Virus record (IMG/VR): IMGVR_UViG_2852501635_000002
Location: 9,493-73,492 of that record
Source: a virus
Taxonomy: Duplodnaviria > Caudoviricetes
Reading direction: 5' to 3' (one strand)
DNA length: 64,000 nucleotides
The first letter of the stretch is position 1. Each line of letters opens with the position of its first letter. The translations under genes were made by a program, and so were the position numbers. Positions 10,492 to 64,000 of the stretch are shown here, piece after piece. The notes beneath the pieces were generated by a model. The model was given only the letters and a program-made list of their open reading frames with translations. It made no database searches and was not told the DNA's origin.

Positions 10492-10672
10492 CTTAATCGC
10501 AGCTATTGAAGAAGCAAGATATTTAAAATACAAATCAGGCGGTCGAGTTAACTTCTGTGTAATGCAAGTTATGGACTATATGGAAGTGGTAAGCGGGCTG
10601 ATGGATGGTGTCAGGGTTTTATATACAACTGCCAATGATGATTATCACACAGTATTACCGGAGGCGAGATGA
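10478..10672 (+). CDS. Hypothetical protein
   Basis: Coupled ORF between rusA and Q. Confidence 0.6.
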   Translation: MMFTDLIAAIEEARYLKYKSGGRVNFCVMQVMDYMEVVSGLMDGVRVLYTTANDDYHTVLPEAR

Positions 10673-11172
10673 GCTATATCGGAGAAAAGGAATTAACAGA
10701 TGAGCAGTTTCGCTGGCTTGATGGTTGGTTAAATCTGTGGGGGGCTTGGGTATATTCTGGTCGTATCGATATTCGCATGATCAATATGATTTATAAATTC
10801 ATGCAAACAGTTGAGCCAAGTAAAAACCCATCAAGACCTATGTGCAATGACGATGAAGGAATGTTGATTTCTCAGGTCGTAGATTCAGTCATCGCCACTG
10901 ACACACAGGCTTATGGAATATTACTAAGTTATTACGCTCACGGATCATCTAAGTTGTCGATTGCATCTTACTATCACCGAGTTGCAAAACCACGCAAAAT
11001 GCAAACAAGAGGGGGGAATAAATACGCCAAGCCATCTCATAGAACTTGCAGGAGAGAAGTCGATGAAAAACTCAAAGCTGCTCAGTGGTTATTGTACGAA
11101 CCTCTGCGAAATGCAATGAATAATCGTAAACGTGTAGCTAAAGTAAAGAAAATAGCTGAACTTTGCTATTGA
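10669..11172 (+). CDS. Late antiterminator Q
   Basis: WLNLWGAWV...PMCNDDEGMLISQVV; last gene before late promoter. Confidence 0.85.
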   Translation: MSYIGEKELTDEQFRWLDGWLNLWGAWVYSGRIDIRMINMIYKFMQTVEPSKNPSRPMCNDDEGMLISQVVDSVIATDTQAYGILLSYYAHGSSKLSIASYYHRVAKPRKMQTRGGNKYAKPSHRTCRREVDEKLKAAQWLLYEPLRNAMNNRKRVAKVKKIAELCY

Positions 11173-11197
11173 CATTAATGGACAAATGGACAACAAT
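11169..11197 (+). promoter_or_regulatory. Late promoter pR' with direct-repeat Q-binding element
   Basis: TTGACA-17-AACAAT with ATGGACAA repeated in the spacer. Confidence 0.5.
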
Positions 11198-11245
11198 TAT
11201 AAGGTAAGTTGCTTTACGTGACTCTTAAGTTTGCTTACCTCATTC

Positions 11246-11269
11246 AAGACCTCGCTACGGCGGGGTTTT
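11246..11269 (+). terminator. tR'-like intrinsic terminator
   Basis: AAGACCTCGC-TACG-GCGGGGTTTT. Confidence 0.7.
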
Positions 11270-11315
11270 AGCTTATAAACATTGAAAATAATGCATATTT
11301 CCCATATTGTACTTG

Positions 11316-11425
11316 TGTGTTAAGTAAGTACGGTCGTGGGGTGCTGACATCCCCGATCTGAGCACAATCCTCGGCAAGGGATTATGCTTAATGAAAGCCT
11401 GATAGAGATATCGGGCTTTTTTTTT
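11316..11425 (+). ncRNA. Candidate standalone sRNA
   Basis: TTGAAA-17-TATTGT promoter (11282-11310), two hairpins, terminator 11394-11425, no ORF. Confidence 0.45.
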
Positions 11426-11439
11426 GTATCTAAAATCCG

Positions 11440-11506
11440 AACAGTGCCCCTCATAACCTCTACGCAGAACGGAGAAATCTGGTTTGCGATACGTTTGGGG
11501 CTTTCT
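11440..11506 (+). ncRNA. 67-nt structured element, orphan copy of the RNA upstream of the satellite Abi gene
   Basis: 66/67 identical to 57434-57500; GCCCC/GGGGC outer stem and inner GAAA tetraloop stem. Confidence 0.6.
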
Positions 11507-11614
11507 ATTTTAATTCCCCGAATTCGAGGGAATAAGTTTTTGATATTTATCCAGAGTGCTTATTTGCATTGTGGTAATCCAACTCTCCGGAAATTCCGGA
11601 TAGTTCACATTCAG

Positions 11615-11638
11615 AAGATCGCTTAGGCGGTCTTTTTT
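11615..11638 (+). terminator. Intrinsic terminator after hairpin cluster
   Basis: AAGATCGC-TTAG-GCGGTCTT-TTTT. Confidence 0.7.
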
Positions 11639-11713
11639 CGTATATATTAATTTGCCTTTAGCTTTATATCTTCTTGTCATAAAATGTAATTTGGATTTTT
11701 GCAAGGAGATGTA

Positions 11714-12481
11714 ATGAGCCAATTAGAATTGCCATTAATTTCTAGGCAGGAAAACAATGTAGTTATTTCACAAAGAGCTCATGATGGATACATAAATGCT
11801 ACTGCAATGTGTAAAGCGGCTGGCAAGTTGTTAGGGCATTATTTGGAAAATTCAACAGCTAAATCATTTCTATCTGAGTTGTCAGCCGATATCGGAATTC
11901 CGATATCGGAACTAATTCAAACAGTTAGAGGTGGATTTCCTCAAATGCAAGGCACTTGGGTTCATCCGCAGGTAGCCATCAACTTAGGTCAATGGGCTTC
12001 ACCTAAGTTTGCTGTTCTTGTTTCAAAATGGGTATTCGATTGGATGTCTGGTGCAAAACAGCATCAATCAGCGATGCCATATCATGTAAGGCGTTACTTA
12101 ATTAATCGGGAAAAAATACCGCCAACTCACTTTTCTATGCTGGATCAAATGACTTTAAAGTTATTAGCTCCATTAGAATCTAGAGGGTATATGCTCCCAC
12201 AAAAACTTATGCCTGACATATCTTTAGGTAGATTCTTTAGCGATATTCTCAGGGCTAGAGGTTATGATCCTGATTCATTTCCTGTTTATGAGCATGAATT
12301 TGATGATGGAAGAAGACCAGTTGTTGAGGCAAGGCTTTATCCAAATGAGTTAATGACAATGTTTAATTTTGAAATTAACAACTGGATAAAGAATAAATCA
12401 ATAACTTACTTTAAGGGTAAAGATAAAGAAGCATTACCTCATCTGAATGATATAATATTAGCCTTACCAGCCCCAGAGTAA
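11714..12481 (+). CDS. KilA-N domain protein
   Basis: DGYINATAMCKAAGK...QGTWVHPQVAINLGQWASPKFAV. Confidence 0.92.
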   Translation: MSQLELPLISRQENNVVISQRAHDGYINATAMCKAAGKLLGHYLENSTAKSFLSELSADIGIPISELIQTVRGGFPQMQGTWVHPQVAINLGQWASPKFAVLVSKWVFDWMSGAKQHQSAMPYHVRRYLINREKIPPTHFSMLDQMTLKLLAPLESRGYMLPQKLMPDISLGRFFSDILRARGYDPDSFPVYEHEFDDGRRPVVEARLYPNELMTMFNFEINNWIKNKSITYFKGKDKEALPHLNDIILALPAPE

Positions 12482-30770: not shown

Positions 30771-33700
30771 ATGGCACAAGTAGGCGAAATTGTTTATCAA
30801 GTTCAAATGGATGTTCGGCAATTGCTTGCATCGCAACAGCAGTTAGAGCAACGCCTTAATCGTATGGATAGTAGCTTTAACCGAACGTCTCAGTCAGTAA
30901 ATAACACAGAGCGTTCAATGCAGTCTCTATCCAAAGTTGCGGCTGCTCTAACTGGTTATTTATCGGTTTCAATGGTTGCTAGTTATTCAGAGGCATGGAC
31001 TGAATTAAACAACAAGCTATCTAACTCAGTTCGCGCAAGTGAGTCACTTATTGATGTCACTCAACGAGTATTTGATATCTCTCAAGCAACGCGATCTAGC
31101 CTCGATGCCACAGCAACACTCTATGCGCGACTTGAACGAGGAACGAGAGAATACAACACATCAGCGGAAGACTTAGCAAAATTAACATCCATCATCAACC
31201 AAGGTTTTATCGTTTCTGGTGCTACTGCACAGGAAGCAGAAAACGCAATTATTCAGTTATCACAGGGTATCGCTTCTGGTGTTCTCCGTGGTGAAGAATT
31301 TAATTCAGTAGCAGAACAGGGTAGTCGCTTAATGGTTGCATTGGCTGATTCACTAGGAGTAAGTATAGGTCAGCTTCGTAAAATGGCAGCAGAAGGCAAG
31401 TTGACCACTGATGTTGTTGTAAAAGGGTTATTGTCTCAGGGGGATGCTATTGGTAAAGAGTTCGCTAAAACCACTCGAACAATGTCGCAGGCATTTCAAG
31501 AAGCAGGGAATAACTTAACTAAGTTCCTTGGTGAGAATACAACAATAAAGGCATCTATTAACGTATTCAGCGATGCTGTAATTACTGCAAGTAAGAGTCT
31601 CGATGAAATGGTTTTAGCGGTTAGTCTAGTTGCCTCCGTTGTTGGCGGTAGATACATTGCCGCAATGGGGTTGGCTATCAAAGCTAAAATGCAATCAGCA
31701 GTTGCAGCAAGGCAAGAAGCGATAGCAAACCTTCAAGCTGCTAGAGTAGCTGAACACAATGCAATAATGACGGCAAGAAAGACCGCTTTAGATTTAGCAG
31801 CAGCCAGAGCGTTAGTTGAGAAAGCGAAAACTGAATTTGCGGCCGCAAGAGGAACAAACGCAGAAGCAACCGCGCTGGCAAATTTAATTGCCGTTAGATC
31901 TGCCGCAACAACCGCGGCGATAAATCATAAGCAAGCAACGCAAGCGCAGACAGCAGCAATGGCTAACTCAGCCGCAGCAGCAAGAGCCGCTTCTGTATCT
32001 ATCGGTTTAGCTAATAAAGCTCTAGGTTTTGTTGGTGGCCCAGCAGGTATAGCAATGGCCGCGGGTGCTGCGATCATGTATTTCTACCAGCAGGCAAAAG
32101 AAGCAAGAGAAGAAGCAGTAAAACTTGCAGAGGGAGTAAATCAATTAACTGCTGAAATGAAAAACATGACAAGGGAACAAAAGAGGGCTGAATCTGCCAA
32201 GTTAAAAGAAGCGCTCCCTGAGTTAAAAAATGAAGTTCTAAACACCACTGTCGCTATGAAGCAAGCTGCGGAAAAAGTAAGAGAATTAGAGGCTGATTTG
32301 GCTTTAGCTAAAGTTGGAACAAGTAAATATGAATCCATAACAAAACAGCTAGCCGATGCTCAAGATAAGTTAGCAATTGCAACTGACAACGCAACAAAGG
32401 CGTCAAATAACTACAGTCGCACAAAAAATACCATATCTTTTATTCAAGCTGATCTTAATGGTGAGTTAAAAGAGGGAATTGATTTACTAAAAAGGGAAAT
32501 ATCTGTTCTACCAAGTGGCGCAAAGGGATGGGATTCTTATGGTTTTTCTATTGATAGGGCGCTGCAAAAAAAGAAAGAGTTTAATGGTGAAAAAATATCT
32601 TTCGAATGGTCTAAGGAGGGGATGGATTTAAGAAAATCACTAGAGCGTGAAATGAAGCTAGCTAACGCCAAAAGTGAAGTTGATAAGAGATTATTGCAAG
32701 TTGATTTTTACATTGAAGATAAAGGGATAACAGACGAAAGGGAAATATATCAACTAAAGCAAATAGCAATAGCAACTCAAAAAGCTCAAGATGCAGCCGC
32801 TGAGCGTAACAAAACAACCAAGGAATCAACCAAAGCCACAGATGCTGCTTATGAAGCACTAAAGCGCCAGAGAGAAGAAATTGAGCTTTTAAACAAAGGT
32901 TACAAAGACGGATCTCTTGAAATGGCTAAGTATGATGCAGTTAAGGCGTTGGGTGATACGGCATCCCCTAAGCAGATTGAAAAAGCGGAGCAGCTCGCAG
33001 AAGAAAAATACAACATTGAACGTAATCTAGCAGATAAGAAAGCCGCGCTTGAGCTTGATTTGGTTGCTAAAGCTAAGGAATCTCACGATAAGCAGTTGGC
33101 AGACTTAGAGCGGATAACAAAAGATGATGTATCTCTAACTGAACAGGCAGCAAGGCGTAAAGCTGAAATTGAGGCGGAATATCAGCAAAAGATAGCTGAA
33201 ATAAAGGCTAATAACGCTGTATCACCGCAAGATGACATCAAAGGGAAAGTAGATCCTGTTCAGCAACTCAAAAACGAACACGAGCGTAAACTTGCACTTA
33301 TTCGTGAGTTTGAAACAGAAAAAGGCGCTATTACTCAGCGTGGCTTAGAGTTAATGAATGCTGCTAATACTCAATATGAGCAAGCTAGAACTGATGCTAT
33401 GTATGAGCTTTGGAGAAATCAATCATTAGGAAACGAAGCTGCCGCGGCTGCACTAGATGCATTCTCTGGTAGCGCATCAAATGCACTTACAGGAATAATC
33501 ACTGGATCAATGGAGGCTTCTGACGCATTAAGATCAATTGGTAATACAGTTTTGAATAGCCTAATTAACACCTTTGTTCAGGCTGGAATTGAGCAAGCTA
33601 AAGCTGCTTGGTTTGGCGCAGCAGCACAGCAAAGCGCCATTGCAGCAACAACGGCGGTGCAAACGGCTGCTATCGGAACGCAAACGGCAGTGAGCACGGC

Positions 33701-34163
33701 AGCAGCTGCCACAACAACAGCCGCTTGGACACCTGCGGCAATTATGGCATCAATCGCGTCAATGGGGACAGCGGCGAAAATAGGTTTAGCCGCAATCGCT
33801 GTACTTGGCGTTGGTGCAATTGCTGGTGCTCGTAAAAATGGCGGCCCTGTTGACGCTGGTTCAATGTATCGAGTTGGTGAGGGCGGTAAACCTGAGATAT
33901 TTAAGGCTAACAACGGCCGACAATACATGATACCCGGTGACAATGGAAAGGTTATTTCTAATAAAGATATGCAGGGTGGTGGTATGAATGTGAATGTTGT
34001 CTTTAATGACTATTCATCTGGTGGCCACAAGTTTGATGCACAGGCATCACAAGATGGAAATACGCTAACTATTCAGGCGTTCATTATGGATATGGATAAC
34101 AAAGGCCCTATGCTTCAATCCATCACAAGAAACACATCGGCAACAGCGAGAGCAAGAGGTTGA
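30771..34163 (+). CDS. Tail tape measure protein
   Basis: 1130 aa, QLSQGIASGVLRGEEFNSV, GGPV...VGEGGKPE C-terminus. Confidence 0.93.
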   Translation: MAQVGEIVYQVQMDVRQLLASQQQLEQRLNRMDSSFNRTSQSVNNTERSMQSLSKVAAALTGYLSVSMVASYSEAWTELNNKLSNSVRASESLIDVTQRVFDISQATRSSLDATATLYARLERGTREYNTSAEDLAKLTSIINQGFIVSGATAQEAENAIIQLSQGIASGVLRGEEFNSVAEQGSRLMVALADSLGVSIGQLRKMAAEGKLTTDVVVKGLLSQGDAIGKEFAKTTRTMSQAFQEAGNNLTKFLGENTTIKASINVFSDAVITASKSLDEMVLAVSLVASVVGGRYIAAMGLAIKAKMQSAVAARQEAIANLQAARVAEHNAIMTARKTALDLAAARALVEKAKTEFAAARGTNAEATALANLIAVRSAATTAAINHKQATQAQTAAMANSAAAARAASVSIGLANKALGFVGGPAGIAMAAGAAIMYFYQQAKEAREEAVKLAEGVNQLTAEMKNMTREQKRAESAKLKEALPELKNEVLNTTVAMKQAAEKVRELEADLALAKVGTSKYESITKQLADAQDKLAIATDNATKASNNYSRTKNTISFIQADLNGELKEGIDLLKREISVLPSGAKGWDSYGFSIDRALQKKKEFNGEKISFEWSKEGMDLRKSLEREMKLANAKSEVDKRLLQVDFYIEDKGITDEREIYQLKQIAIATQKAQDAAAERNKTTKESTKATDAAYEALKRQREEIELLNKGYKDGSLEMAKYDAVKALGDTASPKQIEKAEQLAEEKYNIERNLADKKAALELDLVAKAKESHDKQLADLERITKDDVSLTEQAARRKAEIEAEYQQKIAEIKANNAVSPQDDIKGKVDPVQQLKNEHERKLALIREFETEKGAITQRGLELMNAANTQYEQARTDAMYELWRNQSLGNEAAAAALDAFSGSASNALTGIITGSMEASDALRSIGNTVLNSLINTFVQAGIEQAKAAWFGAAAQQSAIAATTAVQTAAIGTQTAVSTAAAATTTAAWTPAAIMASIASMGTAAKIGLAAIAVLGVGAIAGARKNGGPVDAGSMYRVGEGGKPEIFKANNGRQYMIPGDNGKVISNKDMQGGGMNVNVVFNDYSSGGHKFDAQASQDGNTLTIQAFIMDMDNKGPMLQSITRNTSATARARG

Positions 34164-40983: not shown

Positions 40984-42195
40984 ATGAAGCTAACAGCCAG
41001 ACAAGTAGAGACTTCCAAGCCAAAAGAGAAAGCTTATAAACTTTCTGACGGAGGGGGCATGTATTTAGAAGTTGCTCCGAATGGTTCTAAGTATTGGCGT
41101 ATGAAATATAGATATGCTGGTAAAGAGAAAAGGCTGGCTTTAGGTGTATACCCATCAATATCACTCGCACAAGCTAGGGCGAAGAGAGAAGAAGCCAAGC
41201 GCATATTAGCGTTAGGTGATGATCCATCTTTAGTGAAGAAAGCAGAAAAGAGAGAGAAAGAATCTCAAGTAAATAATAGCTTTGAAAAAATTACGCTTGA
41301 ATGGCATGACTATAAAAAGCCGAATTGGTCAAAAGGTTATGCGGATGATTTACTAGAAGCCTTCCAGAAAGATATCTTTCCTTATATTGGTAAAGTTAGC
41401 ATTACAGAAATTAAACCGTTAGATATGTTAGAAGTGCTTCGGAAGTTAGAAAAACGCGGTGTGTTGGATAAGCTTAAAAAGATAAGGCAGGCATGTAACC
41501 AAGTATTCCGCTATGCAATTGTGACAGGACGGGCTGAGTATAATCCCGCATCAGAATTAGCCGGCGCACTGTCTACTCCAAAAGCTAAGCATTTTCCTCA
41601 CTTAAATGTGAATGAGTTACCTGAGTTTTTACAGGCACTATCTGTATGTAGTGGAAGTAAGATCACTCAGATTGCGACAAAGCTATTAATGATAACAGGC
41701 GTTCGTACTATTGAGCTTAGAGCTGCTGAATGGTCAGAAATTGATTTTGATAAAGCTATTTGGGAAATTCCAAAAGAACGTATGAAAATGCGTCGCCCTC
41801 ACATGGTGCCATTATCTACACAGGCCTTAGAATTATTCAAAGAAATACAAACCATAACAGGAAAGTTTAAGTATATCTTTCATGGTAGGAATGATGCTTC
41901 TAAACCAATGAGTGAAGCGGCCATAAATCAGGTTATCAAGCGTATTGGTTATGATGGTAGAGCCACAGGTCACGGATTCAGACATACAATGAGCACCATC
42001 CTGCACGAACAAGGCTATAACACTGCATGGATTGAGACTCAACTTGCACACGTTGATAAAAACTCTATTCGTGGAACGTATAACCATGCTCAGTATATTG
42101 ATGGCCGTAGAGAAATGCTTCAATGGTACGCTGATTATATGGATACTTTAGAGAGCGGGGATAATGTTGTCCACGGTAACTTTAAACGTGCTTAA
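40984..42195 (+). CDS. int: P4-family tyrosine integrase
   Basis: LSDGGGMYL, GVRTIELR, HGFRH, QLAH, YNHAQY. Confidence 0.96.
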   Translation: MKLTARQVETSKPKEKAYKLSDGGGMYLEVAPNGSKYWRMKYRYAGKEKRLALGVYPSISLAQARAKREEAKRILALGDDPSLVKKAEKREKESQVNNSFEKITLEWHDYKKPNWSKGYADDLLEAFQKDIFPYIGKVSITEIKPLDMLEVLRKLEKRGVLDKLKKIRQACNQVFRYAIVTGRAEYNPASELAGALSTPKAKHFPHLNVNELPEFLQALSVCSGSKITQIATKLLMITGVRTIELRAAEWSEIDFDKAIWEIPKERMKMRRPHMVPLSTQALELFKEIQTITGKFKYIFHGRNDASKPMSEAAINQVIKRIGYDGRATGHGFRHTMSTILHEQGYNTAWIETQLAHVDKNSIRGTYNHAQYIDGRREMLQWYADYMDTLESGDNVVHGNFKRA

Positions 42196-44814: not shown

Positions 44815-45536
44815 TTACCCTATGTTCAATAAAGGATATTGCCTACCAAGTGAATAATTCTCTACTGGCAGGTAATAACGTAAGTTCAACTTACACCACG
44901 ACTAATACGGTAGCTTTAAACTATGGTATTACGGGCAGTCAATCAGCGAAAATTTACGCCAATCAATCAATCCTAACCACCGTTGGAGGATGGGATAACA
45001 GCGATAACCTAAAACGTGGAGAATTTACACCATTTATTAAAGGTGATTTTTCTCACCTTTCTAAAGTCGGGAAATCTCGCTATTTATCGAGTGAAATTGA
45101 GTTTTTACAGTCCATAAAAAAGGGCGGCCAATCGGCTACCCTTGGGAACGTCGATATTAAATACCGAGCAAGTGAGAACTATAAGAATAGTATTCATCTT
45201 GTTATCGGTAAAGATGACAACCTTGAGTTAATACAAAAATGTGCAATACATCACTTGCACTTATGGGTAATTGTTGGCTATAGTGATCAGGCACTAGCAA
45301 AATCTAGTGTCAGGATTGGCGTTCTGAATTTGTACAAGGCGACACATGACGCGCCTAGCGTCTTTTTTTGTGTCAATGCCTACGCACACCTATTAAATGC
45401 GGTATTATATCGCACCGAATCTATGGTGGCGGCAGCAGAGCAACCGAAAGGTTGGCTGGTTTCCTTGTACGCCAGTAACGCCAACTCTACTGTCGTCACC
45501 ACCCCGAAATTGGCGTTTCTGGTGGTGACTCCTTAG
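44811..45536 (+). CDS. Ash-family ORF overlapping c4/CI RNA, with composite N-terminus
   Basis: GYS..ALAKSSVRIGVL, APSVFF, SMVA..EQPKG motifs. Confidence 0.7.
   Translation: MITLCSIKDIAYQVNNSLLAGNNVSSTYTTTNTVALNYGITGSQSAKIYANQSILTTVGGWDNSDNLKRGEFTPFIKGDFSHLSKVGKSRYLSSEIEFLQSIKKGGQSATLGNVDIKYRASENYKNSIHLVIGKDDNLELIQKCAIHHLHLWVIVGYSDQALAKSSVRIGVLNLYKATHDAPSVFFCVNAYAHLLNAVLYRTESMVAAAEQPKGWLVSLYASNANSTVVTTPKLAFLVVTP
45424..45501 (+). ncRNA. c4 / P4 CI-type antisense RNA
   Basis: Closing stem TGGTGGCGGCAG/CTGTCGTCACCA; loops CCTTGTAC (45463) and AACGCCAA (45477) complementary to GTACAAGG (45332, 45541) and TTGGCGTT (45316, 45510). Confidence 0.85.
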
Positions 45537-53045: not shown

Positions 53046-53386
53046 TGGAAAAATTACAACGGTTAGCAAGCACTATAGCCCAGATTTATGTTGATAATTT
53101 AAAAGCTGAAACAGGAGAAACATTAGTAACTTATAACGGTATCACAGGTAAAGTTACCCCTGAATTACTGGCCGCTGGATTGTTTGATAATGCGGTATTT
53201 GCGGTTAAAGCGGATGGAGAAGAGATTGACGTTGAAGGTAAGGCGTATGATTTACTATCCCCGTTAATTAACTTATCAACAAAGCCTTACTCCCTAACGG
53301 GACAGGCATATAAATTGATTAATTTTCTCAATGTGCAGGCACTAAAAGCAGGAAGCACTTTATCAACCTTATCAGTTGTACATTAA
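53045..53386 (+). CDS. Hypothetical protein directly upstream of satellite TMP
   Basis: TAATG-coupled ORF; possible chaperone by position only. Confidence 0.65.
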   Translation: MEKLQRLASTIAQIYVDNLKAETGETLVTYNGITGKVTPELLAAGLFDNAVFAVKADGEEIDVEGKAYDLLSPLINLSTKPYSLTGQAYKLINFLNVQALKAGSTLSTLSVVH

Positions 53387-53402
53387 TCACAGGGAGAAAA
53401 TT

Positions 53403-56400
53403 ATGTATCATGGCGAAGGTTACACAGTATATGTAGATGCCGATACGGCCGGCCTTCTTGAGGCTAACCGTGAAATCGAAAAAGCAAGAAGAAAAATAAA
53501 TGATTTAGGCAACGAAGCAAACACCACAAGCAAATCATTTACTCAATTCAATAAATCAGCAATCGCGGTTTCCAGTGCGTTAAAAATGCCTGAAATAAAC
53601 CGCTTATCACGTCAAATGAGTGAATTGGCGGGGCAAATTGGCGCTGCTTCAATGGCAACAGATAAGGCAACGACTGTTAACGCGCGTTTTACAGGTGTGA
53701 TTAGCAATGTGTCTGGGCTACTAGGGGCGGGATATGTTTCTAATATTGGTAGCGCTACTGTTTCGCTCTTGCAACATACTCAAGGGGCAATTAATGCCAC
53801 ACAAGCCGAGGTTTTACATACTCGCGCTATTCAAATGAAGGCTCAGGCATTGCAAGCTGCTGCCTCCCAAGAAGTGATTAACGCCAAAAATCTTAAAGCA
53901 TCAACACAAGCAGAGCTAAAAGCAGCTCAGGCAGCGTTAGAACACGTTTATTCATTAGAAGGCTCTAATGATATCAAGCAGCGTAATTTAGAGTCACTTA
54001 GGGCACGACAGGCAGCAGTGCTCAAGGATGCTGAAATAACTTATCAAATGACTGCGAGTGAAGAAAATTTGCAGCGAGTGACTAAAGCCAGTAATGCGCT
54101 ACATGCTACGGAAACTAAAATAAAAACGCATTTAGCTACAACCGGAAAAGAAATTGCGCTTGTTGAGGCTAGAGTCGCTAAAGCAAAAGAAGCAGAAACA
54201 CTAGCAACTCAAAAATTAAATGCGGCATTAGCATTAGAGCAAAAAGCGAAAGCCACACTAGCCACTACAACAGACGCGGTGACCGTAGCTAATGGTCGCG
54301 CAGCCCAAGCGGCTAGAAGTCAATCCATTGCTATGCAAGGATTGCGAGGTGTTGTGGGGTTATTAGGTGGCCCAACGGGTGTTTTTATGTTGGCTACTGC
54401 TGGCGTGTATGCGCTATATAACGCGATGAATGATGACACCGCAACGAAAGAGTTTAATGACAGAGTAGATCAGTGGATTGATAAAATTGACGAACTGTCA
54501 GCCAAACAGGCTCGCGCTGTGGCTAACCGCTTAGGCGAGAAGATAGCGGAAACAACCACACAACTAGAGGGACAGAAAAAAAGTCTTTCCAGTGTTAATT
54601 CAGATCTAAAAAGATATGAAAATAGACTTGCTGATATTAATAAAGAGATTCAAAGACAAAAAGAACAAGGTTTTGAAGTAGGTAAGTCTTACGTTCAGGA
54701 TGATATAGTAAAGGAAATCGAAAAACTCACCAAGAAACAGCAGCAGTATGAGCTGATTATTTCAGAAGGTGAGCAGAATATTCGTCGCTGGACGGTATCA
54801 CAAGGTAAAGCCGCTAATATTGCAAAAGAGAGAGCAAAACAAACAGACGAACTCAGCAGAGCGGAATTAATTTATCAACGCCAAGCTAAAGGGATAGTTG
54901 ATGCTAACCAACAATTAGCTAGATCACTAGAGCTAGGCAGTGACGCAGCCGTTAAGAAAGAACAAGCCATCAAAGAGTTAGAAAAGGCTTTAATTGCTGA
55001 TGGTTTTGTTAAAGACTCCGAGTTATTTAAACAAAAAATACAAGAGTTAACGGATGAGCTTGATAAGAAGGCAAGTTTAAACCTTGCTAACTCTCTTGCT
55101 GAGATAGAGCAACGAACACAAGCCCTCACTATTGGCATGAAAGACGGTAAGCCTGCACTGGATGAATACAATGCCTCGTTACTGCTTATGCAAATGGGGA
55201 TAAAAAAAGGTTCGGCTACCTACAATACCGAACTCCCGAAAGCGATAGAGGCAATACGCAATTTACGTGAAGCTCAAGAAGCCGCACTAAATAGCAAATC
55301 AAATGCTAACAAGTCGTTGAAAGCGATTAATAAGGCAAATGATGCCATTAAAAAACAACAGCAACAGACTGAGACGTTAAGAAAAGAATTTGAATTATTG
55401 AGTTCTGGCGCAGCTAACGTAAATAGAGAGATGGCTATTTTTAACGCTGTTCAAAGTCTGGGTGCTGATGCGACAGACAAGCAAAAGAAAGCTATTGCTA
55501 AAGAAGTCGCCGAAGTTTTTGACCTCAAACAAAAAGTCGATGACTTTATTAAGTCGCAAGAAATTACTCCAGAGTTAAAACTTGCAAGAGCATTTAGACA
55601 AGAATCTGAAGAGCTTAAACGCATGTTTGATAATGATTTCATTGATGAAGAAACGTTTAAGGCGTTAGGCAATAAAGCAATGAAGGCATTTGATGCTGGA
55701 ATGGCTGAAATAAAAATAAACGCGGTTATTGACCCAATAACTGAAGCCAAAGGGCAATACGACCCGATACAAGCACTGGCTAACGAACACGCTAAGAAAC
55801 TTGAGATGATCCGCCAATTCGAAACAGAAAAAGGCGCTATTACTCAGCGTGGCTTAGAGTTAATGAATGCCGCTAATACTCAATATGAGCAAGACCGGTT
55901 AAATGCTCAATGGGAGATATGGCGCAATCAAAGCCAAGCCAATCAATTCTTAGCTGATGGGTTGGACGCATTAGGACAGCGCTCTACTAACGTACTCACA
56001 GGGCTATTAACTCAAACACAATCCATTAACGATGCTTTCCGTAATGTCGCCTTAACCATCGTAGACCAAGCCGTTGGCGCTCTGGTCCAAATGGGTATGC
56101 AACAAGTTAAGAATATGATTATGGGTGAAAGTATGGCGACAGCCGCTCAAGCATCTGCATTGGCTCAGGCTGCGGCAGCACAAGCGGCATGGGCACCAGC
56201 GGCATTAAGCGCATCAATAGCCACATTAGGCGCAGCAGTAGCAACGGGAACATCATCATATACGGCGGCTATGGCAGCTAGTAAAACGATGGGGTTGGTT
56301 GCTGGTGCTCGTAAAAATGGTGGACCCGTAAATGCTGGCTCTATGTATCGAGTGGGTGAAGGTGGTAAGCCTGAGATATTCAAAGCATCTAACGGTAGTC

Positions 56401-56633
56401 AGTACATGATACCGGGTGATAATGGTCGAGTTATTAGCAATCGACAAATGGGTAAAGGTGGTAATGGTGTCAGCATGGGTGATATGAACTTTACATTCCA
56501 AGTTCAAGCACCTAATGGCATTACTCAAAAGGAGGCGCAACAAATACAGCAAATGGTGAGAGGTACGGTTTATGACGTACTTGGTAACGAAATGCGTAGC
56601 GGTGGTGCTTTGGAAAAAGTAAGAAGTTGGTAA
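53403..56633 (+). CDS. Satellite-encoded tape measure protein
   Basis: Ala-rich coiled coil, LLGGPTG, C-terminal blocks nearly identical to prophage TMP. Confidence 0.88.
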   Translation: MYHGEGYTVYVDADTAGLLEANREIEKARRKINDLGNEANTTSKSFTQFNKSAIAVSSALKMPEINRLSRQMSELAGQIGAASMATDKATTVNARFTGVISNVSGLLGAGYVSNIGSATVSLLQHTQGAINATQAEVLHTRAIQMKAQALQAAASQEVINAKNLKASTQAELKAAQAALEHVYSLEGSNDIKQRNLESLRARQAAVLKDAEITYQMTASEENLQRVTKASNALHATETKIKTHLATTGKEIALVEARVAKAKEAETLATQKLNAALALEQKAKATLATTTDAVTVANGRAAQAARSQSIAMQGLRGVVGLLGGPTGVFMLATAGVYALYNAMNDDTATKEFNDRVDQWIDKIDELSAKQARAVANRLGEKIAETTTQLEGQKKSLSSVNSDLKRYENRLADINKEIQRQKEQGFEVGKSYVQDDIVKEIEKLTKKQQQYELIISEGEQNIRRWTVSQGKAANIAKERAKQTDELSRAELIYQRQAKGIVDANQQLARSLELGSDAAVKKEQAIKELEKALIADGFVKDSELFKQKIQELTDELDKKASLNLANSLAEIEQRTQALTIGMKDGKPALDEYNASLLLMQMGIKKGSATYNTELPKAIEAIRNLREAQEAALNSKSNANKSLKAINKANDAIKKQQQQTETLRKEFELLSSGAANVNREMAIFNAVQSLGADATDKQKKAIAKEVAEVFDLKQKVDDFIKSQEITPELKLARAFRQESEELKRMFDNDFIDEETFKALGNKAMKAFDAGMAEIKINAVIDPITEAKGQYDPIQALANEHAKKLEMIRQFETEKGAITQRGLELMNAANTQYEQDRLNAQWEIWRNQSQANQFLADGLDALGQRSTNVLTGLLTQTQSINDAFRNVALTIVDQAVGALVQMGMQQVKNMIMGESMATAAQASALAQAAAAQAAWAPAALSASIATLGAAVATGTSSYTAAMAASKTMGLVAGARKNGGPVNAGSMYRVGEGGKPEIFKASNGSQYMIPGDNGRVISNRQMGKGGNGVSMGDMNFTFQVQAPNGITQKEAQQIQQMVRGTVYDVLGNEMRSGGALEKVRSW

Positions 56634-56699: not shown

Positions 56700-57068
56700 A
56701 TGATAAAGATAAAAGTATCTAAAAGGAAAGGTCGCAATCAATCATTTCTACAATATTGCCAGCATGTAGATCAACGAGTATCACGGGCTATGCAACGGTT
56801 TCTTTTCGATGCTGGAGCACAATCCGCAATTTATACGCCTATCGATACATCAACATTGATTAATAGTCAGTTTAGGGATGTTACTGTTAATGGTACAAAA
56901 ATAACGGGACGTATTGGTTACTCCGCCAGCTATGCCGTTTATGTGCATGATCCGAAAGTTAAGCAGAAATTTAAACGACCAACAGCTAAAAAAGAGTTCT
57001 TGAAAAAAGCGGTCGAGGAAACGCTACCTAATTTAACTAAGTATATTCATGAAGAATTGAAGAGTTAG
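56700..57068 (+). CDS. HK97 gp10-like neck/tail-completion protein (homolog of 23558-23929)
   Basis: YTPIDTSTLINSQFR..TGRIGYSA.YAVYVHDP.VKQKF.R.TAKKEFLK shared with prophage gene. Confidence 0.88.
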   Translation: MIKIKVSKRKGRNQSFLQYCQHVDQRVSRAMQRFLFDAGAQSAIYTPIDTSTLINSQFRDVTVNGTKITGRIGYSASYAVYVHDPKVKQKFKRPTAKKEFLKKAVEETLPNLTKYIHEELKS

Positions 57069-57095: not shown

Positions 57096-57433
57096 CGTGG
57101 AAGGAAATATGCAAAAAACAACCAAAAAGAAACCAACCATTATTTTTATGATGTACCGACAATGCGCCTAATTGTGACGTGTGAACAATCCATCAACATT
57201 CACATAAGAGCCGATAGAGTAACAGGGGCAATCATGAGGAGTTTGTGAGGCAAGCAATCATTGAGAAGCTAAAAAAAAGCAACAGCACAAATAGCTAAAT
57301 CGCTATATGTATGTGTCAATAACTTGGTTATAGCTATATATATTGTGTTTACGTTAAAAAAATAGACAGGTAATTACAAGCTCATAATGATTAGCCCCTA
57401 GACAAGATAAATATATTCAGTATTATTTATCCC

Positions 57434-57500
57434 AACAGTGCCCCTCATAACCTCTACGTAGAACGGAGAAATCTGGTTTGCGATACGTTTGGGGCTTTCT
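57434..57500 (+). ncRNA. Candidate RNA antitoxin upstream of Abi gene
   Basis: Nested stems, TAGACA-16-TATTAT promoter at 57399-57426, T-rich tail. Confidence 0.6.
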
Positions 57501-57533
57501 TTTATCTACTATCTGATAATTTTCCATGCTGCT

Positions 57534-58529
57534 ATGCACCCTCTAAAACCTCATCTAACGTATTTTGACCAAATAAAAAAGCTAGAAAAACGAGGAATGA
57601 GTTTTGAGGATCTACCTCCTGAGCAGGCGGTAAAGAAAATAATGAATATTGGATATTACAGGCTATCTGGGTATTGGTATCCATTCCGTAAGTTAAAGTT
57701 AATCCCACCAGTAGCACCCGATGAAGCCAGACGTGAAGAAACATTCCTTGAGGGTACAACCTTTACAACGGTATACGCACACTATTTATTTGATGTAAAA
57801 CTAAGAAGTTCTATTTTTTATGGAATAGAACGAATTGAAACTTATCTTAAAGCAAAAATAGCTTACGAACTAGGTAAAGTATCCCCTACGGCATACAAAG
57901 ATAAGAATATCATCCAATACAGACATCACTACCGACATGATACATGGCTAGAAAAGTTAGATTCTTTAATAGAGCGAAATAGTGATAAAGATTGTATACG
58001 ATGGAATTTAGATAAGTATGGGGATATTCCTATATGGGCTATCGTTGATATTTGGGATTTCGGTACAATGTCTCGCTTCTACGGAATGCTTGAAGATAAA
58101 TACAAACATCAAATTTGTAAATCGCTTGGCTTTCTAAAGCCTAACTCAGCAAATGTAAGAGATGGACTGAAAACAGCATTAGAGCACCTTAATACAGTTA
58201 GAAACAGGTGTGCCCACCATGCGCGTTTATGGAATACCGATTTTTCAGACTCAAAAATTAGCATCGATGTGTTAGATAATATTGATTTAACAGCCTCGCG
58301 CTTGTCTCCAAAAAGCCCTGAACTATCAAGAATGGCAGGTATCATATTTTTAATATGGAGTCTGACCAAGAGAATAAGTTGTAATTCTACATGGCTAAGT
58401 TCAGTAAATGATCATTTAGAAAAACATCAGGGCGTTATTCCGTTTAATTCAATGGGATTCGATAATAACAATATCTCAGGATTAAAAAATCTATTGGATA
58501 AGGAAAAAGAACAATCAGCCCAATCATAA
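57534..58529 (+). CDS. Abi_2 (AbiD/AbiF) HEPN abortive infection protein
   Basis: IGYYRLSGY, IERIE, PIWAIVDIWDFG, RNRCAHH (RxxxxH). Confidence 0.92.
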   Translation: MHPLKPHLTYFDQIKKLEKRGMSFEDLPPEQAVKKIMNIGYYRLSGYWYPFRKLKLIPPVAPDEARREETFLEGTTFTTVYAHYLFDVKLRSSIFYGIERIETYLKAKIAYELGKVSPTAYKDKNIIQYRHHYRHDTWLEKLDSLIERNSDKDCIRWNLDKYGDIPIWAIVDIWDFGTMSRFYGMLEDKYKHQICKSLGFLKPNSANVRDGLKTALEHLNTVRNRCAHHARLWNTDFSDSKISIDVLDNIDLTASRLSPKSPELSRMAGIIFLIWSLTKRISCNSTWLSSVNDHLEKHQGVIPFNSMGFDNNNISGLKNLLDKEKEQSAQS

Positions 58530-61022: not shown

Positions 61023-61547
61023 TAGGTCGCCTTGAAATTAAGGGGACGTGAGGCTCTGAAATCGGAGGCTCGTCACTGGCTGGCAATATTCCAATAATGG
61101 CTACGAGGTAAAAGTAACCACAATGCAAATAAGCACTCTGGATAAATATCAATAAGTTATCTATGCTGAGAGATAAGATTACAACAAAGAGCGACGGCAA
61201 GATTACGGCAAGGTATTAACAATCAGGTTTCAGTCGGTCAATTTGACCGTTAGCAATAAAAACAATGTGTTGCCAACTCTTACCATTGGTCACTGAAACG
61301 ATGACCAATGAGCGTTAATCTGGTTTTGTTACAGAATTAAGTATTATCAATCAGTTGTATTTTGATTCCGTCGATTTACCGGAATTAAGTATAATCAACA
61401 GGTTATATCTACATACGGGATAATCCCGTATCATCATGGATAAATTAACGTTTAGATCACCCCTAGAAATTGGAATTATTACCTATACAACCTGAATCCT
61501 ACCAGTGTTTTATTTTAACCAATAGCTTATATTGTGATGGTATCAAG

Positions 61548-62887: not shown

Positions 62888-64000
62888 ATGGAGATTAAAA
62901 TGAGTATAGTTTATGTGCCATGCATAAAAAACGGGATGAATGATATAAAGGCTTTATTAAATTTAAAGGAAGAGTCATCAGGTTATGTCATGCCTCTAGT
63001 GTTAACAGCAGGAACGCCTTATGGAGGGAATGGTGTAGATTTAAAAAAAGACTACTTACTAGATGAGTTTATACATAATTGGGATAAGCCATTCATTGTA
63101 GATGCCTCTAGGGCTGATTCAGATAGTGAGTCACTTTATAATTCCTACCACAACCTGACATCACAGCACGACAATTTTTCGGGTAAAATCACTTACTATT
63201 CAAGTATATATTCAATAAATAAAAAATTAATTCCAGCTATAAGTTGGCAGCTAAATGATGATATGAGAAATATTGTTCAACTCTCTCTGTATTTAGAGCA
63301 GCAATATGAAAAAATAGCAATAATCATTGATCCTAATAATAGTGAGAATTTAAATAGATTAGATACGTTGCTTTGTTTGTTTAAAGATAACTCAAGAATT
63401 ATTGTATTGCTTAATTATAATTCTATATATAACAAAGAATTACCTCAAGAGCATAAAGTTTTACCAGTGATTAGTAAATTAACCTCGCGTGGAGTGGGGA
63501 GTATAGTATTACTAAGTTCTTCATTCCCTCCAGTAAAACCTGCAATAAAAGATACATGGATACAGTCAGAGAACACTGATCTACTGTGGCAACTAACAAT
63601 GATGAATAAGTCACCCAGAGATAGCGTTATCTTATATGGTGATTATTCAGCCACATCACCTAATTCAGCAACAGAATATATACAAGGGATGCAAATAATT
63701 CCAAGTGTGACTTATTTTAGAGGCGGTATTTGGTATCAAATAAAATCAGGTGTAGACAAAGAATTTTCAAAATATAAAGACATAGCAAACGAACTAATCA
63801 GATTGGATTTCTTTCATGGCTCAACATTTTGTTGGGGTGCTGAAAATATTTATGATATTGCAACCAATAGAGACAGGAAAGGAGGCACCCCAGGAACATG
63901 GAATGGGTATAAAATTAATGTTCATGTAGAGGAAACGATCAGAATTTTAAAAGACTATTACAGTACTCCACTTGAAAATTACGATGAAGATAGTGAATAG
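62888..64000 (+). CDS. Beta-family protein (T4 beta-like)
   Basis: YVPCIK...AL, SSSFP, YGDY, W...H pattern. Confidence 0.7.
   Translation: MEIKMSIVYVPCIKNGMNDIKALLNLKEESSGYVMPLVLTAGTPYGGNGVDLKKDYLLDEFIHNWDKPFIVDASRADSDSESLYNSYHNLTSQHDNFSGKITYYSSIYSINKKLIPAISWQLNDDMRNIVQLSLYLEQQYEKIAIIIDPNNSENLNRLDTLLCLFKDNSRIIVLLNYNSIYNKELPQEHKVLPVISKLTSRGVGSIVLLSSSFPPVKPAIKDTWIQSENTDLLWQLTMMNKSPRDSVILYGDYSATSPNSATEYIQGMQIIPSVTYFRGGIWYQIKSGVDKEFSKYKDIANELIRLDFFHGSTFCWGAENIYDIATNRDRKGGTPGTWNGYKINVHVEETIRILKDYYSTPLENYDEDSE

Follow-up and report, generated by a model that had tools for sequence, protein, structure and literature searches.

The window analysed here, a stretch of 64,000 nucleotides, comes from an IMG/VR provirus record of 73.5 kb. 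Its first part, from position 1 to ~40,300, is a lambdoid siphophage, and an integrase-bearing island, a putative satellite, extends from position 40,984. Two copies of a 67-nt element lie on the plus strand, one in each of these parts: copy A at positions 11440–11506 in the phage late region, and copy B at positions 57434–57500 on the island. A preliminary description of this DNA had reported 66 identical nucleotides out of 67, which is borne out by the gap-free alignment of the two copies. An independent repeat search returned the same pair with slightly extended ends (75 nt, 11435–11509 and 57429–57503; 96% identity), and besides two tape-measure gene stretches, no other direct repeat of such quality is present in the 64-kb window. 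Chance falls far short of explaining a 67-nt match with a single mismatch in 64 kb. The sole mismatch, C11465 in copy A and T57459 in copy B, is located in the inner stem (alignment pair 29–50) and converts a C–G pair into U–G, so that the pairing is preserved as had been proposed; the same minimum-free-energy fold is predicted for both copies (−20.2 kcal/mol for A and −18.2 kcal/mol for B), with modest z-scores (−1.9 and −1.4, respectively). The exchange does not distinguish the two copies as such, the T form being the commonest variant of the element and occurring in phage leaders as well.

Copy A is situated in the leader of the phage late operon. Upstream of it are the gene for the antiterminator Q (10669–11172, plus strand; Pfam Phage_antitermQ, E=4.4e-22) and a late promoter-like site (TTGACA-17-AACAAT) with a short leader running to a tR′-like hairpin (11250–11271; site and leader, 11169–11271, plus strand), the hairpin being kept in all five aligned phage leaders. 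Between this hairpin and copy A lies an inserted cassette (11282–11428, plus strand) with a promoter-like site and a strong intrinsic terminator (11393–11428); copy A, a candidate AbiFr-like RNA module scoring 102.7 bits with CM R1, thus stands 3′ of Q and two terminator hairpins. The promoter-like site of the cassette reads TTGAAA-17-TATTGT, and the cassette, which also gives a sub-threshold sroB-like match (25.6 bits), possibly specifies a small RNA. It is missing in the phages BPM-V3 and PSTNGR2lys, in which the element adjoins the tR′-like hairpin, and 150–190 nt of unrelated sequence separate the two in the window and in the phages Pm34 and Brookers. Downstream of copy A are the gene for a KilA-N protein (11699–12481) and those for a holin and an M15 endolysin. 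No Abi_2 gene is found among the neighbours of copy A (10669–12481 and the holin), which is a genuine toxin-less orphan, as the preliminary description had it. A protein-coding origin was considered for an ORF (11384–11626) that covers copy A and was rejected, for its flanks and frame vary among loci and the variation tracks base pairs; a tRNA-like origin was also rejected, with no tRNA detected in the window by ARAGORN. A 44-nt inverted repeat with unrelated flanks (11532–11575 and 61117–61160; 95% identity) starts 25 nt after copy A and has its reversed partner ~2.6 kb beyond the Abi gene; it may mark a past recombination between phage and island, or another small mobile module. In a sequencing run labelled RNA (X1), the locus is one long contig across the whole stretch and is uninformative on transcription; the raw-read runs in which the island is missing (no reads in X14 and X20, three reads at the edge in X17) have no bearing on expression.

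On the island, copy B is the presumed leader or antitoxin RNA of a toxin gene, and consists of an extended hairpin followed by UUUCUUUUAU (57434–57506, plus strand). A sigma-70-like promoter (TAGACA-16-TATTAT; 57399–57426, plus strand) ends 6–7 nt before the RNA, so that transcription is predicted to begin at, or close to, base 1 of copy B. The gene directly after the element (57534–58529, plus strand) had been described as an Abi_2/AbiF HEPN gene, an assignment that stands: it encodes a 331-residue protein of the AbiD/AbiF family (Pfam Abi_2, E=1.6e-50) with the motif RNRCAHH, which matches PADLOC AbiD (E=6.3e-58) and PbAbiF (PDB entry 8vz6_A; E=7.9e-16), with the HEPN R-x4-H motifs aligned, RNRCAHH to RNSCCHH. 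Its ATG codon at 57534 is 33 nt from the end of copy B and is conserved in a 75%-identical orthologue. The element precedes Abi_2 genes at 100, 96, and 75% protein identity; a promoter-like site of the TAGACA-16-TATTAT type is present in all seven Abi-linked copies, including those of the 96% (Providencia, G168) and 75% (Proteus, G189) orthologues, and the spacer from the U-rich tract to the ATG is 28–33 nt in the Abi-linked copies. Around the 75% orthologue, the flanks have diverged and the element is different only at haplotype positions. A search of genome contigs with the single Abi_2 protein as query gave 67 pattern matches and no relative among them, an outcome that is limited by the method and has no bearing on absence. 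The arrangement of copy B resembles that of AbiFr and RCd22 (Prevotellaceae PbAbiF, PDB entry 8VZ6, and Clostridioides difficile phi027, respectively), short structured RNAs with their own promoter and a terminator or terminator-like end, directly before an Abi_2 HEPN gene. These published AbiF RNAs, which confirm the earlier statement that AbiF-family enzymes have cis RNA antitoxins, lie upstream of the toxin gene, end in a terminator, attenuate toxin transcription in cis, bind the toxin, and neutralise it also in trans; moreover, the regions upstream of abiD and abiF genes are reported to be more conserved than the genes themselves (10.1101/2025.04.15.648962; PMC12737573; PMC13064643).

The predicted fold of the element is a single long hairpin comprising an outer stem P1 (GCCCC/GGGGC), a 3-bp P2, and P3–P4 closed by a GAAA loop. 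In the alignments, standard pairs account for 98.1% of the pair cells in 33 distinct sequences and 98.5% in 55 distinct sequences, values to be read with the 22 positions fixed by the pattern search and the fitting of alignment A6 to the model; sliding the 3′ partner as a control lowered the pairing to 17–55%. Only 15 of 989 cells are unpaired, and the pair-breaking variants are rare singletons, while pair-preserving ones are common. Two adjacent P2 pairs switch together (AU/CG to GC/UA and back), one locus (L079) has GCCCA/UGGGC in place of the common P1, and another (L081) has A–U in place of G·U. Most of the variation consists of two linked haplotypes, and the covariation in P2 and in the 67-nt form therefore represents few events. 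The unpaired loop bases CCUCU, AUAC, UCAU, and GAAA are conserved as well. One-sided changes are mostly C to U opposite G, or A to G opposite U, and these, together with the G·U pairs, indicate that the conserved entity is a structured RNA of the plus strand. A minus-strand RNA and a DNA cruciform were rejected as candidates, because the one-sided changes and the G·U pairs fit the plus strand only.

Diverged forms of this RNA accompany diverged Abi_2 genes. CM R1 detected one (39.5 bits, E=5e-9) immediately before an Abi_2 gene with 58% identity and another (19 bits) before one with 37% identity; these leaders keep the basal half but have a different apical hairpin. A further 24 distinct leaders of 31–42%-identical Abi_2 homologues align as one family with a shared design: a promoter, CAACNG, the first strand of a G+C-rich outer stem, CCUCU, a variable hairpin, UAYG, the closing strand of the outer stem, and a CUUCUU or U-rich end. 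Compensatory changes were found with RNAalifold in six of the seven outer-stem pairs in a 29-sequence alignment including both window copies. Since diverged RNA versions precede Abi_2 homologues at 58% and 31–42% identity, the RNA of copy B is very probably the type III antitoxin cognate to the Abi_2 toxin, similar to AbiFr and RCd22. By the same comparison, the RNA is native to the Abi cassette, diverging along with the toxin family, and its descent runs from Abi cassette to phage, because it is the diverged Abi_2 genes that carry the diverged versions; capture of the RNA from the phage by the island was rejected on this ground. The leaders belong to a broad Abi_2 leader-RNA class in Enterobacterales-type proviruses (L200, L201, and L207–L263; alignment A8).

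Rfam did not detect the class in the members scanned. The abiF motif (RF03085; gathering threshold, 37 bits) was not found in the window at gathering, nor around either copy at E≤10, so that the comparison with this motif proposed at the outset gave a negative answer; no Rfam family of any kind matches copy A or copy B at E≤10, or the leaders L200 and L201 at E≤1. As a positive control, the canonical abiF motif was recognised (29.2 bits) at L202, an enterobacterial homologue of 33% identity. The RF03085 motif and the window element have in common a hairpin with a G+C-rich outer stem, a variable apex, conserved internal-loop bases, and a position upstream of abiF genes. They differ in the large internal loop, which is on the 5′ side in the window element and on the 3′ side in the motif, and the window element and the 24 related leaders are without a match to it. 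Likewise, the abiF motif of RCd22 is undetectable in the window element, a single long hairpin with the loop signature CCUCU/UAYG. Owing to the lack of a match for the class, copy B is filed as an AbiD/F-type leader or antitoxin RNA and not as RF03085, and its probable antitoxin role is deduced from the architecture and from the family defined in this analysis.

The preliminary description had dealt with the orphan in this particular helper phage, to which the distribution of the element shows it is not confined. Blastn against GenBank phages returned four records with the element, the Proteus phages Pm34, Brookers, and BPM-V3 and the Providencia phage PSTNGR2lys, in all of which it is located between the upstream Q gene and the lysis genes, without an Abi gene; blastn against E. 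coli genomes did not find it. A 22-nt pattern of the element occurs in 60 IMG/VR loci and in four species-representative genomes (one Providencia, Proteus vulgaris, and two MAG contigs). Only four of the IMG/VR loci are Abi-linked (L009, L021, L043, and L062), and the other 56 are of phage type. A Q-type protein is encoded within 1.2 kb upstream in 43 of these 56, the remainder being cut off or having small ORFs there. The Q proteins belong to three mutually unrelated families (Pfam Phage_antitermQ, Pfam Antiterm, and PHROG 753 'Q-like'), and several different holin families are encoded downstream of the phage-type element. The abundance of orphans is specific to the 67-nt variant, given that an Abi_2 gene adjoins two further variants of this class in 9 of 10 (the tenth not evaluable) and in 12 of 12 IMG/VR loci. 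Among 151 family-level genomes, CM R1 matched the source genome only; it gave three strong matches (>90 bits, near-identical) and a marginal one (~21 bits) in 24 Providencia genomes, and two strong matches (>90 bits) and a marginal one (~21 bits) in 21 Proteus genomes. For annotation, a match to the element RNA does not imply a nearby toxin, and in phages it marks the junction of Q and the late leader. The two MAG contigs, binned as Ignatzschineria (L071) and 'Bacteroides sp.' (L072), have phage-type copies directly after a tR′-like hairpin, and either reflect a wider host range or are mis-binned phage contigs.

What the phage copies share with the Abi cassettes is exactly the transcribed RNA, the similarity running from AA(C/U)AG to GGGGCUUUC. 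At least 10 junction types occur upstream of the phage copies and at least five downstream, and a promoter-like site at the position equivalent to that before the Abi-linked copies is found in none of 72 phage copies, versus all seven Abi-linked ones. Lacking a promoter of their own, the phage copies would depend on transcripts that start at the late promoter and run through them. Among the matches listed, which comprise at least 118 loci with a tR′-like hairpin, the element is present within 700 nt in 24 of 110 evaluable leaders. It is an accessory and not a core part of the lambdoid late leader (pR′–tR′). In one genome (G195; L094 ~2130–2330), a cassette of ~180 nt with a small ORF of ~48 codons replaces the element, in the slot corresponding to window positions 11272–11512; this type of cassette is common to at least five IMG/VR loci, and several other alternative cassettes are seen among the matches listed. 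The slot behind tR′ looks like a hotspot for accessory cargo.

A position directly behind the tR′-like hairpin, in a leader with several terminator-like hairpins, could mean that the element acts in cis, as an extra terminator or insulator or as an RNA stabiliser tightening the dependence on Q, a terminator module being shared with the Abi cassette by recombination. A T-rich tract ends 51 of 80 aligned copies, and published AbiF RNAs do attenuate transcription in cis (10.1101/2025.04.15.648962). However, the remaining 29 copies, all of phage type, have a CUUUCGAUGU-like tail without a U-run, which suggests that terminator function is not what is conserved, and a terminator scan called the element in neither the context of copy A nor that of copy B. 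The conserved unpaired loop bases are needless for a terminator, 86 of the 110 related leaders among the matches listed do without the element, and the unit held in common with the Abi cassettes includes the 5′ end and all the rest of the RNA, going beyond a stem with its tail. We regard a cis-acting leader part as unlikely, though it is the foremost alternative to an RNA acting in trans.

Neutral descent offers another explanation, in which complete Abi cassettes in the late or lysis region lost toxin and promoter, and the leftover RNA hitch-hiked with mosaic leaders. Decay of toxin–antitoxin loci commonly leaves an antitoxin orphaned, and the second piece of phage leader found inverted in the island speaks for past exchange. 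Such an origin is conceivable because complete AbiF cassettes have been reported within or beside prophage lysis modules (10.1101/2025.04.15.648962). Against it, tblastn with the Abi_2 protein found neither a match nor a toxin fragment in the 56 phage-type IMG/VR loci (a few of which are too short downstream for this search, with flanks of phage type) or in the four sequenced phages, and the promoter is missing throughout the 72 copies. Despite the variety of junctions, the copies begin and stop where the RNA does, pair-breaking variants are rare and pair-preserving ones common as described above, and in IMG/VR no orphans of the two other variants were seen. Neutral remnants are accordingly improbable.

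The preliminary description had further proposed that the satellite Abi spares its helper by means of the decoy RNA. This scenario is weakened, as the arrangement is not a fixed one. In the record G195, this island with its Abi gene accompanies a nearly identical prophage (95–98% identity in Q and leader) that is devoid of the element, which is missing as well from a prophage (L116) in the same genome as an Abi-bearing record; co-residence of Abi and a phage copy is therefore not obligatory. Of the interpretation given there, the assignment of the RNA to the Abi_2/AbiF cassette is upheld by the promoter, the terminator-like end, and the diverged versions before diverged Abi_2 genes, and the orphan is not specific to this helper, occurring in many phages. 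Where Abi and phage copies do reside together, they share the haplotype in four of four cases (the window, G198, G168, and G189), for which the chance probability is ~0.05 at the 34:37 ratio of the haplotypes among phage copies; the agreement may reflect only local recombination or host species. Haplotype matching was rejected as a signal of specificity, given this chance probability and given that compensatory stem changes are reported to be immaterial for RCd22 (10.1101/2025.04.15.648962).

The shared haplotype would also suit an opposite relationship, in which the cassette exploits a leader element of the phage: AbiF would be recruited to, or activated on, the late mRNA via the hairpin, or would be titrated off its own leader, leading to de-repression of the toxin. 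AbiF is reported to process its own ncRNA and to be the forebear of Cas13, an enzyme that binds a repeat hairpin (PMC12737573). Comparably, translation of AbiD1 is activated by a phage protein, and a phage factor activates its expression (PMC13064643). Nonetheless, the element is dispensable and often missing from near-identical phages, and a harmful handle would be expected to be lost, yet it is structurally constrained in more than 70 phage copies. The RNA is also ancestral to the Abi cassettes and not to the phage leaders. We consider a handle or sensor of this kind very improbable.

We give about an even chance to the reading that the phage copies are a Q-dependent, phage-borne antitoxin decoy, in which the phages would bear the antitoxin RNA of a defence that occurs among their own hosts. 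Copy B would attenuate toxin transcription in cis and bind and block the HEPN RNase in trans, in the manner of the published AbiF RNAs. Copy A, a promoterless and toxin-less RNA in the accessory slot behind the tR′-like terminator of the late operon, would be made in bulk only when RNA polymerase modified by Q passes on into the late genes, and this late-made phage RNA would supply antitoxin in trans to an AbiF of the host or of a resident island. AbiF may thereby be kept neutralised through late development, which would amount to a counter-defence for the phage. It speaks against the decoy reading that Q-dependent late expression may come too late for an earlier-acting toxin. The proposal can be widened to temperate lambdoid phages of Proteus and Providencia in general, which would have fixed a complete AbiF antitoxin RNA in a swap-in slot behind the late terminator, as an anti-defence 'RNA moron' that has no promoter and is made in bulk only under Q, with the slot serving as an anti-defence hotspot and with Abi cassettes and phages continuing to exchange the RNA, in keeping with the matching haplotypes of co-resident pairs; in this full extent, we hold it to be tentative, a little short of an even chance.

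The closest precedent for the decoy reading, also cited in the preliminary description, is Pectobacterium phage PhiTE, which escapes ToxIN through pseudo-ToxI RNA, a phage-borne, toxin-less antitoxin RNA that is expressed in the course of infection and directed against an abortive-infection RNase (PMC3475682); for the window element, this function is putative. The toxin is ToxN there and a HEPN Abi_2 protein here, and the RNA is made of 36-nt pseudoknot repeats there and is a single 67-nt hairpin here. PhiTE is a lytic myovirus whose effective mimics arose as laboratory escape mutants, whereas here a single late-leader position has full-length copies already fixed in it across many lambdoid phages of temperate lifestyle. 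An AbiF-type sRNA in a phage genome is also known from cyanophage S-CREM1 (RF03085, 51.6 bits; PMC9964418, repeated in PMC12197685). That is a single case of a canonical abiF motif in a lytic T4-like cyanophage, with no decoy reading given in the available text, in contrast to the recurrent late-leader module described here. A full-text literature search returned no report of phage-borne AbiF antitoxin copies as decoys, or of phage counters to AbiD/AbiF; the primary PbAbiF paper and its supplements lay outside the search and may already list the CAACNG–CCUCU RNA class or the orphans.

HEPN systems of the AbiD/AbiF type are a widespread form of defence by abortive infection and are proposed ancestors of Cas13. 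If the decoy reading is true, RNA antitoxin mimicry would no longer be a single case in a lytic phage but a common and naturally fixed strategy of temperate phages, and the element would represent a natural RNA counter-defence spread through a whole population, the first of its kind against the AbiF/Cas13-ancestor family. Should the orphan RNA neutralise the toxin, an AbiF leader-RNA class missed by Rfam would be added, together with a late-leader slot in which anti-defence cargo may be sought.

The island that carries copy B encodes, besides Abi_2, two antirepressor-like proteins, a C4/isrK RNA pair, a primase-helicase, a tape-measure-like protein, a tail-completion-like protein, and a 223-residue protein. 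The tape-measure-like protein (1085 residues, PHROG 1107; 53376–56633) is followed by the tail-completion-like gene (56700–57068); stretches of its gene are 75–79% identical in DNA sequence to the phage tape-measure gene (30771–34163), an unusual cargo for an integrase/primase island. The C4 antisense RNA (71 bits) is adjacent to isrK (66 bits) at 45291–45506, and an unrelated genome of an enterobacterium has this RNA pair next to an Abi_2 homologue of 36% identity (L201, 2887–3128). At the far end of the island, a gene at 62888–64000, which runs off the window end, encodes a 'Beta protein' (Pfam PF14350) that matches PADLOC PD-Lambda-2_C and is a candidate defence gene.
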